Below are positions 502 to 4,895 of a DNA stretch of 6,725 nucleotides, piece after piece. Within the stretch, counting starts at the first letter, position 1, and every line of letters starts with the position of its first letter. The notes below the pieces were generated by a model, which saw nothing but the letters and a program-made list of their open reading frames with translations, made no database searches and was not told the origin of the DNA. Origin of the DNA: a virus (Duplodnaviria > Heunggongvirae > Uroviricota > Caudoviricetes); the IMG/VR virus record IMGVR_UViG_2548876853_000015; one strand, given 5' to 3'. The translations under genes and the position numbers were made by a program.

Positions 502-544
502 AATGTAACATCGGTAGTTAAAAAACACAATTTATTAGAGCAAA
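502..544 (-). promoter_or_regulatory. Candidate sigma70 promoter overlapped by a P1 C1-repressor operator-like 17-mer, immediately 3' of pacB
   Basis: Minus strand 544..528 reads TTTGCTCTAATAAATTG, matching the recalled P1 C1 operator consensus ATTGCTCTAATAAATTT at 15 of 17 positions. A -35 TTGTGT (530..525), 17-nt spacer and -10 TACATT (507..502) follow on the same strand. Confidence 0.5.
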
Positions 545-547
545 TAT

Positions 548-2032
548 TCATTCATTAAGCCATGCCAGAGCTTCATCAACCTGCGCTTCGTCTTCGACGC
601 TAAGCACTTCATCCTGGGGAACATAATCCGCCAGCATAGCGAAACAATATGTATCCCAATGGTCTGGTGAGTGCAGGTTGAGTTTTTTCTTCATATCCTC
701 CTTACTCATCACCTTCCATTGACCTGCGGAGTTAATCCCTACAGGGATTTTCGACGCTTCCTCAATAGTTTCATTACCCTTATCCAGTCTCATACGACCA
801 GATTTTACGGCCTCTGCGGCTTGAACGTTGGCATAAGCACGTTTATCAAAGTACAGGCTCTTATCTTCACGGCTATGCATCTTTTTACCCCAGCGTATGC
901 GCTGTACGGTAATACCATAATACTCGTACATCAGATCCGCCGTTGCTTTACCCAGGCCATCGCCGTCTATCGCTATGGTGATATTTGGGAATCGCTCAGG
1001 ATTACATTCTGCGAAAATTTTGGCGGCAAGCTGCGTTTCTGTAACGTCTGTGTATTCCAGCATTCGATAGTTGATTACACGGCGTTTATTTCGCTGGCCG
1101 GACACCATCATGATATTGATAACGGACTTATCCCGTCCCGTACCACCAGCAACGTCCACACATGCAAGCCAGCCCCATCCTTTTGCAATCTTGACTTTCC
1201 GCCGCGTTGCACGTTCAACCTCATCACGTCCAAGAAGGAAGCCATCCTGTGATTTAGGGAATAGGCCGCGTACCTTAATCATGTACATAGGGTTATCACG
1301 CCCGCCGTACTCCGCCAGCTTCATTTTGATAAATGCTGGCGTTACCAACGGTGATTCCTCACTGTTAAGCGTGATCGCCGTATAAACGCCATCAGGGTTA
1401 CCAGGACGCTTGGCCAGTTTATGGTGTGTATCGTAGAAATAGCCGCTTGGGCGTGTAGGCTGTGACAGTAATAAGATGCGGTTATCCTGTCCGGTAAGAG
1501 CACCGGTGATGATACCGAAAGCTCTATCACTGACACCGGAGGCTTCATCGATAATATACAGAAGATGATCTGCGTGTTCACCGGCAAGAGCTTCTTCACT
1601 TCCCAGACGAAAGCCCTTCGGTACTACAGTCCATACACCTTTACCAGTAACCTCATAGAAAGCGGTTTCTGTCAGAACAAAATAATCAGCAAGCCATGGA
1701 AAACGGCTGGTGGCAGTAGCCCAGTTTATCTTGATGTACTTGAATATACCGGTCATTACCTGCTGAATTTTGTTCGCAACGATAATGGCGCGGGCACCGG
1801 GATACATGATTATGAACAACATGATCATGATAGAAGTCATGTCTGATTTCCCGGTACCGTGACCAGACGAAACAGATGTCTTGCTACCCTGTTCCTGCAC
1901 AGACTCAATAATCAGATCCTGCTGCCAGGTAGGTGTTTTGCCGAACAAAACATCAGCGGCCGCAATCCAGTCATAACGATATAGCGCCACCAGCTCGCGC
2001 CAACGTGGATCCGTTACGCAACTTCTGGCCAT
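548..2032 (-). CDS. pacB: Terminase large subunit (P1 PacB-type), 494 aa
   Basis: 494-aa ORF with a Walker-A-like ATPase motif (SSGHGTGKS). Start ATG overlaps the pacA stop by one nt (TAATG). Size and position match the recalled P1 PacB (494 aa). Confidence 0.9.
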
Positions 2033-3225
2033 TAATCATCATCCCCGTATAGCTTGCGGGTAACTTCTTCGTCTTCCTCCTCGTCTTCGTCCAGGTCTTG
2101 TTCCAGCCATGGGTCGTTTGATACACCTTCAGTATCAACATCTCCATAACCGCCTGTATCAACGATATCGGCGATTTCTTCCCTACGCTGCTCAATCCAC
2201 AATGCGGCATCGGCGCGGCGGTTGGCGGCCCGTTCTCGCGCAACTTTGTCCAGATCTTCAAGAGAAGGGCCACCGACGGCTGTTTGCCTTTCCTCATCAT
2301 CGGTATTGGTCTTAGGAGCACGCAGATCGGCTTTGATTTGCTCCAGCATCAGGGGCGGAACTTTCCCACCATGCGCCTCGATAAATTCAGCTGCTTCCAG
2401 CACTGACCAGTTATTTTCACGCTTTCGTTCGTATGCCAGCTTAACAATGCCAGCTTGCCCCATAGACAAAGCGTGCTTTTCCGCCTCCCGGCTTTCTTTT
2501 CGATAGTTATTCCGGATGCTGTAAATGGTGTTGATCAGACTGCTTATCTGCGCGGAACAGCTGTTTAGCATGCTCGCGATACGGTATTCAGGCGGAGTGC
2601 CTTCATCATCGTCTTTTTGCTGATCGCGCATTTCCTGCACCAGGCGAATACACGTATCCCTGGCGTTCTCCAGCATAAGGAGATGAGAAAGAGACTTTTC
2701 AAGAAGAGTGGTTTCCAGAACATCGGCCCCGGACCGACGCAACATAGCGCGTGCGGCCTTCCGCGCTTCAACGTTATCTATCAGGTAATCGCCAGCTTCG
2801 AATTCAAAGCGTTCACCATCATCATCCAGGGTGTCGCGTTCCAGACGATCACGCAAGGTCCGGTGGGCGCGGGTGATCACGTCATGATCATCTGAACGAT
2901 CATTTATGCGCTTATTTTGGCGCTTCGCATTCTCGACTGCGGCACTGACAACGGCATTAACTCTCTGTTTTTCCGCTATTTCAGCCGCAATATGATCACC
3001 TGCATGTTGATCATTAGAGTGATCAATGATCATGCTTTTTAGTGGCTTCCTGACTGGCTTATTTGGCTTGCGGCTGTCCGCAGTCCTGGTGTCTTCTTTG
3101 AAGGCACGGAGATAACGACGTGCGGTATTAGGGTTAAGATTAAACTCGGCGGCATACTGTGCGATGGTGTAACCACCATCTCGCGCCAGGCGAGCAAAAT
3201 TCTTCTTGTGATCGTCCCAGGTCAC
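2032..3225 (-). CDS. pacA: Terminase small / pac-recognition subunit (P1 PacA-type), 397 aa, GTG start
   Basis: 397-aa ORF with an N-terminal helix-turn-helix-like segment ([27 protein letters not shown]) and a highly acidic C-terminus. GTG start at 3225 with SD AAGGAAG 5 nt upstream and an in-frame stop immediately upstream. The pac hexamer clusters lie inside its 5' third, as in P1. Confidence 0.88.
2874..3032. other. pac packaging site: two clusters of TGATCA/G hexamers (Dam GATC sites) flanking a roughly 90-bp hexamer-free core
   Basis: Hexamers at 2874-2879, 2885-2890 and 2897-2902 (the last as cgatca, i.e. TGATCG on the other strand), then 2993-2998, 3008-3013, 3020-3025 and 3027-3032. 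This 3 + 4 arrangement over about 160 bp matches the recalled P1 pac site (about 162 bp, seven hexamers). One further cgatca lies at 2846-2851. Confidence 0.75.
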
Positions 3226-3280
3226 TTATGCTTCCTTTCGTAAAAACTCTTTTTGACGCGAGGGTAACGAAAGTCACATG

Positions 3281-3300
3281 TCAAAAGGCCCGGAACGGGC
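3281..3300 (-). terminator. Weak terminator-like hairpin directly after the lpa stop (GCCCG-TTC-CGGGC then CTTTT)
   Basis: On the minus strand a 5-bp GC stem (3300..3296 with 3292..3288) and 3-nt loop are followed by C then TTTT (3287..3283). The short stem and short U tract make this tentative. Confidence 0.3.
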
Positions 3301-3310
3301 AAGCAATCAA

Positions 3311-3763
3311 TCAGATACGTGCGGATGTGGCATTACCGTAATGACGGTGCTGACGGGCCACCTTATTGAAAAGTTGACGCGCCATTACCCAAGGCTGGTG
3401 CTCCCGGCGTTCCTTTTCGTCCTGCGTCATATAGAGTTCGTTCTGGAGTTTTTCATCAAACCGGCGCGGAGCGCGGCTACGGCGAAAGAATTCAGGATTC
3501 AGAGAGTGGATCTGAAATCTACGTGGGCGTGTACTGTCATCAATCAAAACAGACGAATACTTAGACACAGCGATAGCCTTTAAGCGCAGATAAACATCGC
3601 GCTTATCGACATCCAGATGCGGGTATTCCTTTTCAAGAATTGCTGCGAGTTCTTTCGCTGATAGAAGAGATTTAGTGCGGATCATGTAATCCGCAATCTC
3701 GTACGATGTTATTCGTGAGTGATTTATTTCCATGAAGTGGCGTCCCTGCCAGTTAAGTAACAT
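3311..3763 (-). CDS. lpa: Candidate late-promoter activator (P1 Lpa / gene 10-like), 150 aa, basic
   Basis: 150-aa ORF immediately upstream of pacA, the position I recall for P1 lpa. SD GGTGA lies 4 nt before the ATG at 3763. Assignment is by synteny and size, not by a recognised motif; an alternative start exists at 3733 (MEINHSR...). Confidence 0.55.
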   Translation of the reverse strand: MLLNWQGRHFMEINHSRITSYEIADYMIRTKSLLSAKELAAILEKEYPHLDVDKRDVYLRLKAIAVSKYSSVLIDDSTRPRRFQIHSLNPEFFRRSRAPRRFDEKLQNELYMTQDEKERREHQPWVMARQLFNKVARQHRHYGNATSARI

Positions 3764-3808
3764 CCTGTCACCTACTGATTAGCCCATGTCAACTAATCAA
3801 CGTGGAAT

Positions 3809-3850
3809 ATAATACCCTCGATTAAAGAAATAGCAACACATTAGAGCAAT
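3809..3850 (-). promoter_or_regulatory. Candidate sigma70 promoter for lpa with an adjacent C1-operator-like element
   Basis: Minus strand: ATTGCTCTAAT (3850..3840) matches the first 11 positions of the recalled C1 operator consensus (13 of 17 over the full 17-mer). Then -35 TTGCTA (3836..3831), 16-nt spacer, -10 TATTAT (3814..3809). Consistent with lpa being C1-controlled in P1. Confidence 0.45.
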
Positions 3851-3851
3851 T

Positions 3852-4895
3852 TTATCTAACGCTCGACGAGTGACTTGTGATAGCGCCGACTCCAAGCGCG
3901 TAATCAAAGAACAATCGTTGATGCATCGCCAGCCTACCGTGCGTCTTCTCCCAATTATCGCGGTCACGCTCAATATCACGCTGGCATGACTGGCACAGAG
4001 GAATTGCGTAAATGTCATGCGCGCATAATCGACTATGACGAACGATATAAGGCGTAATGTGAGCGCCAGCTCCCGCCGCTCCACACCCACAGCATGGACG
4101 GGAAGCAACAAAGTCCATGTACTCAGGTAATTTTAGCGATTGCAGTTTTGGTATTTTGAAATGCGCCATGCCAGGGTCGGAGTCAACATCCACAGGGCAT
4201 ACTTTTGCACGCATCGGCGCGGCGCGTTCTTCCATCATCTGAACATATGCTGTAGCGCGATCGTCATACGGGCGAATATCCGCCTCTTTCAGAGGTCCGC
4301 TATCCTGCGTTGCGGCTTTCATCTTATTTATTGATATACGGCAAACTTCTTCCGGCATCAGGTGCATCATGTTGCGCATGAAAGCCCACCAGCACAGTTC
4401 CTGAATACTTAAATCATGGCCATCTGAAAACCCCATTTCCTGACGGGCGACATCCAGGATCCAGTTAACGCGATTATTATGCAGCGTTTCTTTCAGCTCA
4501 TTAAAACCACGCATCCGGTAATGGTTATCGTGATGCCAGCACAACAACACCGCGCTATTGTCTCGTTCTGCGTGGACAATATGGTTGTCACACCAGCTAC
4601 GATCTGCGGCCTGGCATTGCCCCTCTTTCCTGCGCAACCACGCCACCAGCGCGTCAATTCCACCAATACGGCGAAACAGTTCATCGCTGTTAAAAAACGG
4701 CTGCAACGCCTCATTTGTTGCCATAGTTTGCTCGGAAACAACGAGGCCGTCGTCCATGTGCTCGATTAACTCACGCGGCACCGGCTCCATAATAAATTTA
4801 CGGCCAGCCTCCACCAGCTTTCTGACTTCCTGATCCACTTTGAATGTGGCGACGCCAAGCTCTTTTTGTACAAAGGGAGTAATTACGGCTTTCAC
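3852..4895 (-). CDS. Post-doc region protein, 347 aa, with a Cys/His-rich C-terminal module (possible zinc-binding HNH-like fold); function unknown
   Basis: 347-aa ORF with GTG start at 4895 (SD AAGGTG upstream). The C-terminus carries CCGCG ... H ... H ... CAH ... CQSC spacing typical of zinc-ribbon / HNH-like motifs. The position between doc and lpa corresponds to the pdc (post-doc) genes of P1; a resemblance to DUF968-type prophage proteins is a recollection, not verified. Confidence 0.65.

Follow-up and report, generated by a model that had tools for sequence, protein, structure and literature searches.

A probable RNA hairpin conserved at the 5' end of the lpa leader in P1-like phage-plasmids

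The inverted repeat in the leader of lpa very probably forms a genuine RNA hairpin that is maintained by selection, rather than a second C1 site. The window analyzed here is a stretch of 6,725 nucleotides from a P1/P7-like phage-plasmid (IMG/VR record IMGVR_UViG_2548876853_000015), with its genes on the minus strand. Positions 3850..3776 were read as the C1 operator Olpa, the promoter Plpa, and the beginning of the lpa mRNA, with a first hairpin (hairpin 1) shielding the message from 5'-end-dependent decay; the chances of this combined reading are about even. The operator and the promoter being known, the conserved 5'-terminal hairpin is what the comparison adds to the picture of the lpa leader. 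Three conserved leader hairpins, of which hairpin 1 is the first, probably control the lifetime and the translation of the lpa message.

Lpa alone activates all of the late genes of P1, and its level therefore sets the timing of lysis. Descriptions of lpa regulation have so far been confined to transcription, with C1 and Bof acting on Olpa. The leader, with its three hairpins, shows stronger conservation than either the promoter or the coding sequence, which suggests a second layer of control acting on the RNA. The searchable literature covers Lpa, C1 control, and 11 late promoters, and nothing was found in it on the structure of the lpa leader; beside this negative result, the repeat may have been mentioned earlier by Lehnherr et al. 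1992 or Lobocka et al. 2004. P1-like phage-plasmids are found widely in enterobacteria as carriers of resistance genes.

Gene layout and homologous loci

The window contains pacB (548-2032), pacA (2032-3225), lpa (gene 10, encoding the late promoter activator; 3311..3763, an ORF of 150 aa as annotated in P1), and pdcB (3852-4895), with doc, phd, and humD as further genes. All of them lie on the minus strand, and therefore the region under study was read on the minus strand as well. The lpa region is 99% identical to those of Salmonella phage SJ46 and Escherichia phages RCS47, P7, and P1. Diverged relatives were found by a protein search with Lpa, and their loci were retrieved. They comprise 11 types, in which Lpa is 64-72% identical. 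The gene order DUF968/pdcB, lpa, pacA, pacB is conserved among these relatives, and the distance from the pdcB stop codon to the common ATG of lpa is about 118 nt throughout.

Three comparison sets were used: an alignment of 13 leader types, 17 distinct leaders that were folded singly, and 12 types for the position of the start site. Several of the approximately 11 diverged types are members of a single subfamily (ATTGGTTG...), and the cell counts given below therefore overstate how many independent compensatory events took place. The D6-like and Serratia homologues of Lpa (about 30% identity) have leaders that could not be aligned, and the covariation test could not be extended to them. A pattern scan of genome contigs for more relatives returned 3 near-identical loci only, and IMG/VR contained only 4 diverged contigs. 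The 16-nt pattern scans of metagenome and viral collections gave mostly chance matches from unrelated environments.

C1 operator and promoter of lpa

The C1 operator Olpa (formerly Op94; ATTGCTCTAATGTGTTG) is located at 3850..3834 on the minus strand, as indicated by annotation, weight matrix, and conservation. It occupies the same position as the protein_bind features in the P1 records M95666 and AF234172 and in the P7 record AF503408. Of its 17 positions, 16 are identical to the P1 operator and 13 match the 17-bp asymmetric C1 consensus (ATTGCTCTAATAAATTT). A C1 weight matrix was derived from 14 further annotated operators of P1; with it, Olpa scored 9.2 bits and was the second-best site in the window; the best site (22.6 bits) is found at 544..528, beyond pacB towards c1. 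The operator core ATTG[C/T]TCTAAT is kept in all 11 of the diverged relatives.

The sigma-70 promoter Plpa (formerly P94; 3809..3836, minus strand) consists of the -35 element TTGCTA (3836..3831), a 16-nt spacer, and the -10 element TATTAT (3814..3809). The last three nucleotides of the operator (TTG) are also the first three of the -35 element, which is the overlap expected if bound C1 is to block RNA polymerase. Plpa matches the consensus at 9 of 12 positions, and shuffled sequences do equally well (2 found versus 1.8 expected). Its standing is therefore due to the experimental annotation in P1, and not to the consensus score. TTGCTA and TAT[T/C]AT are conserved in the diverged relatives. 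The 16-nt spacing, and a start site about 7 nt to the 3' side of the -10 element, are in agreement with a sigma-70 promoter. The start of the lpa mRNA is the G at 3801 (minus strand), which was mapped in P1 (M95666, 'Transcriptional initiation site of Pr94, G at 4030') and carried over to the window. The order on the minus strand is thus ATTGCTCTAATGTGTTG, TTGCTA, 16 nt, TATTAT, ATTCCAC, G (3801), TTGATTAGTTGACATGGGCTAATCAG, and then TAGGTGACAGGATG. The annotated ribosome-binding site of P1 maps to 3776..3770 of the window.

An earlier note on this DNA had recognized, from the sequence alone, an operator-like element abutting a -35/-10 pair and had proposed repressor control of the late activator. 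The element and the pair are the annotated Olpa/Op94 and Plpa/P94 of P1, and the proposal agrees with the experimentally mapped C1 control of this sigma-70 promoter. Since Olpa, Plpa, and the start site all coincide with the P1/P7 annotation, the operator and promoter part of the region was already known. According to the P1 annotation, C1 at Olpa overlaps the -35 element and keeps lpa off in the lysogen. Binding of C1 (with Lxc/Bof) to the Olpa of the window is predicted; the annotation refers to the P1 sequence and the window variant differs from it by one base. No stem-loop or inverted repeat is annotated at this place in the P1 (M95666, AF234172) and P7 (AF503408) records.

Structure and covariation of hairpin 1

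The inverted repeat TGATTAG-N10-CTAATCA was present exactly as the earlier note had given it, with its arms at 3799..3793 and 3782..3776 on the minus strand. These arms form the perfect 7-bp core of hairpin 1 (3775..3800, minus strand; +2..+27 of the mRNA), which has a 5' arm at 3800..3791, the loop GACAUG at 3790..3785, and a 3' arm at 3784..3775. The complete stem has 10 bp, including 3 G-U pairs, and the predicted fold has a free energy of -9.3 kcal/mol. The fold strength is modest, since 199 of the 6697 28-nt windows on the lpa strand fold at least as well. The repeat alone is also unremarkable: the window contains 17 perfect 7-bp inverted repeats with loops of 3-20 nt, compared with 7.7 +/- 3.5 after resampling, and about 0.1 are expected per 88-nt intergenic stretch. 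The repeat is considered real because of the comparative evidence, and not because of its own statistics. Given how common such repeats are in the window (17 observed versus about 8 expected), it might have arisen by chance and have no function. The covariation, the positional conservation, and the near-zero polymorphism described below make that scarcely credible.

In the relatives, an inverted repeat is found at the equivalent place, directly after the -10 region, and its sequence is different. The arms are UUGAUUAGUU...GGCUAAUCAG in the P1 type and UUGGUUGAG...CUCAACCAA in the Klebsiella type; in three other diverged types they are UUGGCUGA...UCAGCCAA (L099), GCAGCUUAAGC...GCUUCAGCUGC (L097), and AUUGGUUAACC...GGUUAACCAAU (L230). 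In principle, a DNA palindrome that is bound by a co-evolving dimer could also acquire symmetric arm changes of this kind.

In the 13-type alignment, both-sided changes were found in 10 of 11 pairs of hairpin 1, and 90% of the cells were paired. These covariation values were reached by none of 500 shuffles. When the 3' partner was slid by 1-3 columns as a register control, pairing dropped to 17-52%. RNAalifold predicted the helix of hairpin 1 unprompted, and likewise helices 2 and 3. All 17 distinct leaders, folded singly, adopted the common three-hairpin arrangement. Pairing has thus been kept while the sequence has changed, which indicates that selection acts on the structure and not on the sequence, as for a 5' stem-loop. 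The Rfam search gave only two sub-threshold matches for this leader, with E-values of 5.4 and 9.5.

The earlier note had left two options for the repeat, a second regulator site or an RNA hairpin. The hairpin was favored by the compensatory changes, the tolerance of G-U pairs, and the fixed position at the 5' end; the regulator site lost ground on the arms and the loop. A second dimeric regulator of the phage or the host might use the palindrome as a DNA operator and block elongation or open complex formation. The palindrome spans +3..+26, a position where repressors can act, and the site of a co-evolving homodimer would also show mirrored changes in its arms. However, the arms are not C1-like, with the best overlapping site reaching -1.1 bits in the C1 weight matrix, and the matrix scan showed no resemblance to the -22 box of Lpa. 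The imperfections of the stem are biased to G-T on the sense strand, which is relevant only in RNA. The mismatches are mostly G-U: 94.6% of the cells are paired as sense RNA, compared with 89.2% as antisense RNA and 86.9% with Watson-Crick pairs only. Among the relatives, the loop, and with it the spacing of the arms, varies from 4 to 10 nt and the stem from 8 to 12 bp. This variation would be acceptable for a hairpin and awkward for a rigid DNA-binding dimer. Moreover, there is no known candidate regulator. A DNA operator for a second regulator is thus very unlikely. A second C1 operator within the repeat was considered separately and was ruled out by its weight matrix score of -1.1 bits.

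Position at the 5' end and constraint on the leader

Relative to the start G 3801 mapped in P1, pairing in hairpin 1 starts at +2, or at +1 if a G1-U28 pair is counted, and the stem therefore begins within a few nucleotides of the 5' end. In all 12 leader types used for this comparison, the first paired base is the 6th to the 9th nucleotide after the -10 hexamer. For three of the 12 types, the script had chosen a hexamer 3 nt upstream, and 3 was subtracted. The first paired base is predicted to coincide with the start site within about 1-2 nt, where the start site is mapped in P1 and assumed for the window and the relatives.

No other stretch of the lpa locus is as constrained as the leader. 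Among 76 distinct P1-like haplotypes, only 2 of its 68 sites are polymorphic, one in the loop of hairpin 1 (3790) and the other just before the conserved ATG (3737). In the same haplotypes, 22 of 50 sites are polymorphic in the operator-promoter segment, 54 of 249 (0.22 per site) in the 3' end of pdcB, and 36 of 334 (0.11 per site) in the lpa coding sequence.

RppH and RNase E require single-stranded 5' ends, and 5' secondary structure stabilizes E. coli mRNAs (PMC3997798). Hairpin 1 leaves at most one free 5' nucleotide, and because both enzymes need single-stranded ends, it is most simply explained as a stabilizer. Judged by its position and structure, the chance that hairpin 1 stabilizes the lpa mRNA is even at best, and perhaps slightly lower. 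The following mechanism might be proposed. C1 keeps the promoter shut in the lysogen, as annotated for P1, and the message starts with hairpin 1. With one unpaired 5' nucleotide at most, RppH and RNase E would be denied a single-stranded 5' end, and the protected 5' end would stabilize the short lpa message. Hairpin 1 may also be a fixed structural boundary that lets hairpins 2 and 3 fold. A host factor, either CsrA or the 30S subunit, might then read hairpins 2 and 3, and translation of Lpa from ATG 3733 would be set in this way. A terminator-like hairpin (GCCCG-UUC-CGGGC followed by CUUUU; 3300..3283, minus strand) is found 3' of lpa, preceding LPpac, and it is conserved in the relatives with longer stems. 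The lpa message is predicted to be short and to end at this hairpin before LPpac.

A hairpin so close to the promoter might instead act in pausing or attenuation and modulate elongation into lpa, for instance as the place where an antiterminator is loaded. It would take shape in the nascent RNA after about 30 nt of transcription, and P1 is suspected of encoding antiterminators (PMC10695390). However, hairpin 1 is not followed by a U-run; CAGUAGGUGAC comes next. The stem is A+U-rich with CAGUAGG downstream, which is not the form of an intrinsic terminator, and the terminator scan found nothing at the leader. In the relatives, the early transcribed region has no conserved pause-like or -10-like sequence. 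A pausing or attenuation role is therefore very unlikely indeed, and stabilization of the message is the explanation preferred here for hairpin 1.

Hairpins 2 and 3 and the start codon of lpa

In all of the relatives, hairpin 1 is followed after 0-2 nt by a near-invariant block, A[A/G]GUGACAGGA(N)GUU[A/G]CUUAACUGGCAGGGACGCC, which forms hairpins 2 and 3. Hairpin 2 (3755..3773, minus strand) has the 5' arm AGGUGAC (3773..3767), the loop AGGAU (3766..3762), and the 3' arm GUUACUU (3761..3755), and it holds the annotated ATG of lpa (3763..3761). It is nearly invariant in the 13 leader types. The only changes in its stem are one-sided, from G-U to A-U, and 100% of the cells are paired in the sense RNA versus 74.7% in the antisense. 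The loop bases AGGA are invariant, and one variable loop base is U, C, A, or absent in the relatives. Hairpin 3 (3738..3751, minus strand) is invariant; it has the stem UGGC/GCCA and the hexaloop AGGGAC (3747..3742), the latter unchanged in 13 of 13 leader types. This loop is a Shine-Dalgarno (SD)-like element 9 nt upstream of a conserved ATG at 3733.

The annotated ATG at 3763 is replaced by ACG or AAG, or lost by a 1-nt deletion, in 7 of the 11 diverged types, and in one diverged type an extra base breaks the frame. The ATG at 3731..3733 (minus strand; residue Met11 of the annotated 150-aa Lpa) is shared by every relative, and no other ATG is. Because ATG 3763 is variable and ATG 3733 is universal, the conserved start of lpa is the latter. 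The earlier note had assumed an SD after the repeat; neither that SD nor the ATG 3763 that goes with it is conserved. The Pfam model BPP1_LPA begins at residue 15 of the annotated Lpa, and the annotated N-terminus may be 10 residues too long. To judge from the alignment, the hairpin 2/3 block is constrained as nucleic acid and not as codons. An invariant reader, either CsrA or the 30S subunit, might explain why hairpins 2 and 3 are fixed in sequence and hairpin 1 only in pairing.

Candidate CsrA sites in the leader

CsrA sites have been defined as ANGGAN and CAGGA(U/A/C)G, with a bridging range of 10-63 nt (PMC7652899). GAC-AGGAU-GUU in hairpin 2 matches the CsrB repeat CAGGA(U/A/C)G with GGA in the loop. 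The ACA, GGA, and GU elements of the SELEX consensus are likewise present in hairpin 2, where AC and GU are paired. As expected of a two-site CsrA target, one GGA motif overlaps the SD position, 9 nt before ATG 3733. In the P1 genome, 60 GGA-loop hairpins were found on both strands, and paired GGA-loop hairpins 10-40 nt apart occur at only 2 places, one of which is the lpa leader.

These sites allow another reading of the leader, in which hairpin 1 has no stabilizing role and is a module of a three-hairpin translational operator for CsrA or another RNA-binding factor. The factor would bridge the two GGA loops and occlude the SD-like loop of hairpin 3, setting the translation of Lpa, and hairpin 1 would merely prevent mis-pairing of the invariant block. 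Several observations are in line with this. In all types, the gap between hairpin 1 and hairpin 2 is 0-2 nt. The loop of hairpin 2, AGGA(U/C/A), is closed by AC/GU, and the AGGGAC of hairpin 3, which has the form ANGGAN, is invariant. The loops fit the CsrB repeat, the SELEX consensus, and the NMR-defined sites of CsrA/RsmE, and the GGA motifs are separated by 17 nt, within the bridging range (PMC7652899). In ColE7, CsrA represses the lysis gene cel through a hairpin-loop site and an SD site, a matching layout and a precedent on an extrachromosomal element (PMC2896534). In addition, according to one preprint, the induction of lpa in a delta-hfq host overshoots transiently at an early stage; this fits some control at the RNA level and is a hint of post-transcriptional control. 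However, the GGA motifs in themselves also resemble SD sequences, and the invariant reader could then be the ribosome. The stem of hairpin 2 has 7-9 bp, whereas that of SELEX ligands typically has at most 4 bp, and the start of hairpin 1 at +1 is left unexplained by this model. An operator of this kind, in which hairpin 1 does not stabilize the message, is rather unlikely.

Both functions might be combined. The lpa leader would then be a host-responsive post-transcriptional switch, in which hairpin 1 stabilizes the message and CsrA, a global regulator of the host, bridges the GGA hairpins and occludes the SD of the actual start codon. This is put forward as a tentative possibility, with the balance against it. 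If it is true, late expression and the lysis decision would depend on the Csr state of the host as well as on C1, and this logic would span the P1-like phage-plasmids of Escherichia, Salmonella, Klebsiella, and Cronobacter. The literature search found no paper that links CsrA to P1 lpa.

Other candidates in the leader

ALTERNATIVES examined were a late promoter or Lpa operator in the leader, the C4 antisense RNA, a promoter-like site on the + strand, and Rfam. The lpa leader might be targeted by C4, the antisense RNA of P1, or by some other trans-acting RNA, with hairpin 1 presenting the recognition loop. The loop and the 5' arm of hairpin 1 hold UUGACA, which is 6/7 of the target 'a' (UUGACAG), and UUAGU, which is part of 'b'. 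No non-self sequence in the whole P1 genome forms a better duplex with the hairpin 2/3 block than the c4 region does, and shuffled blocks reached the duplex energy with c4 in 3 of 1000 trials. However, the complementary bases of C4 lie mostly in its closed terminal stem, and the matching segments are in a permuted order. The sequence of hairpin 1 is entirely different in the relatives. Moreover, P1 and P7 differ in the loop specificity of C4, and their records show no difference in the leader. A target for C4 or another trans-acting RNA is thus highly improbable.

The leader shares TTGACATG with LPpac, and there is a resemblance between AAGTGAC and ATGTTACTT. The late promoters of P1 have a 9-bp -22 box (AAGTNACTT) and, 4 nt beyond it, a -10 hexamer; they are said to be bound by Lpa (PMC10695390). 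ATGTTACTT, which is the 3' arm of hairpin 2 (3763..3755), scored 11.0 bits with the -22 box matrix, which puts it in second place in the window, behind LPpac, and in 17th place in P1. It is followed by AACTGGCAGG and not by the -10 hexamer of a late promoter. Most of the relatives have GTTGCTT at the arm of hairpin 2, while their own LPpac boxes keep ACTT; the A/G change between ACTT and GCTT is as expected from a switch from U-A to U-G in the RNA. An Lpa-dependent late promoter or operator in the leader was rejected, given that the -10 hexamer is missing and the arm degenerates in the relatives while the LPpac box stays. A putative antisense promoter, ATGTCA-16-TATAAT at 3786..3813 on the + strand, was also rejected; its -35 element is located in the P1-specific loop of hairpin 1 and is not conserved.

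Comparison with known systems

The operator and promoter of the window share their position, orientation, and near-identical sequence with Olpa and Plpa of P1. The -35 element, the -10 element, and the start G are identical. The P1 operator has an A at position 14, whereas the window has a G (position 3837), a variant that is also present in a few other P1-like contigs. Compared with the late promoters of P1 (PMC10695390), the arm of hairpin 2 is box-like and lacks a -10 hexamer, and the repeat of hairpin 1 has no box.

Hairpin 1 of lpa resembles the 5'-terminal stabilizing stem-loops of E. coli mRNAs, such as hairpin 1 of the ompA 5' UTR and the stem-loop of papA, which likewise begin within 0-1 nt of the primary 5' end and lie upstream of the ribosome-binding region (PMC3997798). 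However, the stem in lpa is shorter, with more A-U and G-U pairs. In contrast to ompA and papA, lpa is a phage regulatory gene, and its hairpin 1 is directly followed by two conserved hairpins.

The glgC and ColE7 cel leaders combine a GGA site in a loop with a GGA site at the SD position, as does the lpa leader (PMC7652899, PMC2896534). Like lpa, ColE7 cel is a gene of an extrachromosomal element that triggers a lethal program. However, the sites in lpa are candidate CsrA sites only, the stem of hairpin 2 is longer than that of typical high-affinity ligands, and hairpin 1 contains no GGA motif.

Start codon and GGA-loop hairpins of the lpa leader

The lpa leader contains a block (3773..3738, minus strand) which is almost invariant in sequence and folds as two hairpins, whose loops read AGGAU and AGGGAC. 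Judged by form from the sequence, these are putative CsrA-type GGA hairpins. Their GGA motifs are separated by 17 nt, and the whole P1 genome contains only one other pair of such hairpins besides that of the lpa leader. The second hairpin (AGGGAC loop) occupies the SD position of the ATG at 3733 (minus strand), which corresponds to Met11 of the annotated Lpa and is universal. The annotated start, the ATG at 3763 on the same strand, is not conserved among the diverged relatives; most of them have ACG or AAG at this position, or have lost the codon by a 1-nt deletion which also puts the reading frame out. The Pfam BPP1_LPA model begins at Lpa residue 15. Lpa as annotated (150 aa) may include 10 residues too many; alternatively, two starts may be in use in the P1-type phages.

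Complementarity to the antisense RNA C4

The leader block 3774..3741 was compared with P1 c4 (AF234172 48343-48419; positions 943-1019 of the fetched locus L005), and its complementarity to this antisense RNA lies in the 3' part of C4. Two leader segments are involved: GUGACAGG, with an 8/8 match, and UGGCAGG(G)ACG, with a 10/11 match and one bulge. In the P1 genome, c4 is the best non-self duplex partner of this block, and the duplex was equalled by shuffles in only 3/1000 trials. The complementary C4 segments occur in permuted order, and lie inside a closed stem of C4.

Promoter-like and operator elements

The sequence ATGTTACTT (3763..3755, minus strand) scored 11.0 bits on a matrix of the P1 late-promoter -22 boxes. 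It ranked 17th in the P1 genome and second in the window, where only LPpac scored higher. There is no -10 hexamer 3' of this box, and its counterpart in the relatives is degenerate (GTTGCTT).

Among the 76 P1-like haplotypes, polymorphism in the locus is highest in the operator-promoter segment 3802..3851 (22/50 sites); the adjoining leader is nearly invariant in the same set. Operator base 3837 is G in the window and A in P1. On the plus strand, 3786..3813 forms a promoter-like site (ATGTCA-16-TATAAT, 10/12), which faces pdcB and is oriented antisense to lpa. The -35 element of this site corresponds, in reverse complement, to the P1-specific loop of hairpin 1, and the relatives do not conserve it.

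Just past the end of pacB, TTTGCTCTAATAAATTG (544..528, minus strand) matches the C1 operator very strongly (22.6 bits), and is presumably one of the c1-region operators. A cluster of inverted repeats containing TGATCA is located inside pacA (2884..3033); it is the counterpart of the repeated hexamers, methylated by Dam, in the pac site region of P1.

The end of lpa and the distant homologues

A terminator-like hairpin (GCCCG-TTC-CGGGC, then CTTTT; 3300..3283, minus strand) lies directly 3' of the lpa stop and directly 5' of the late promoter LPpac (-22 box 3279..3271; -10 3266..3261, minus strand). It falls short in the terminator scan, which had a threshold of 5 T; at this position the G+C stems of the relatives are longer and are accompanied by 5 T residues.

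Distant Lpa homologues of the phage D6 group (~30% identity) were found in a D6-like E. coli plasmid (CP056796, locus L349) and a Serratia plasmid (L350). Their leader is different from the P1-type lpa leader, and much shorter. The D6-like locus L349 contains a hairpin at 1455..1498 (-18.2 kcal/mol, z = -2.75), which begins at a -10-like TATCAT and has both the AUG and the SD region (GGGGGA) paired within it. This hairpin is unlike the P1-type lpa leader in design, but possibly serves the same purpose.
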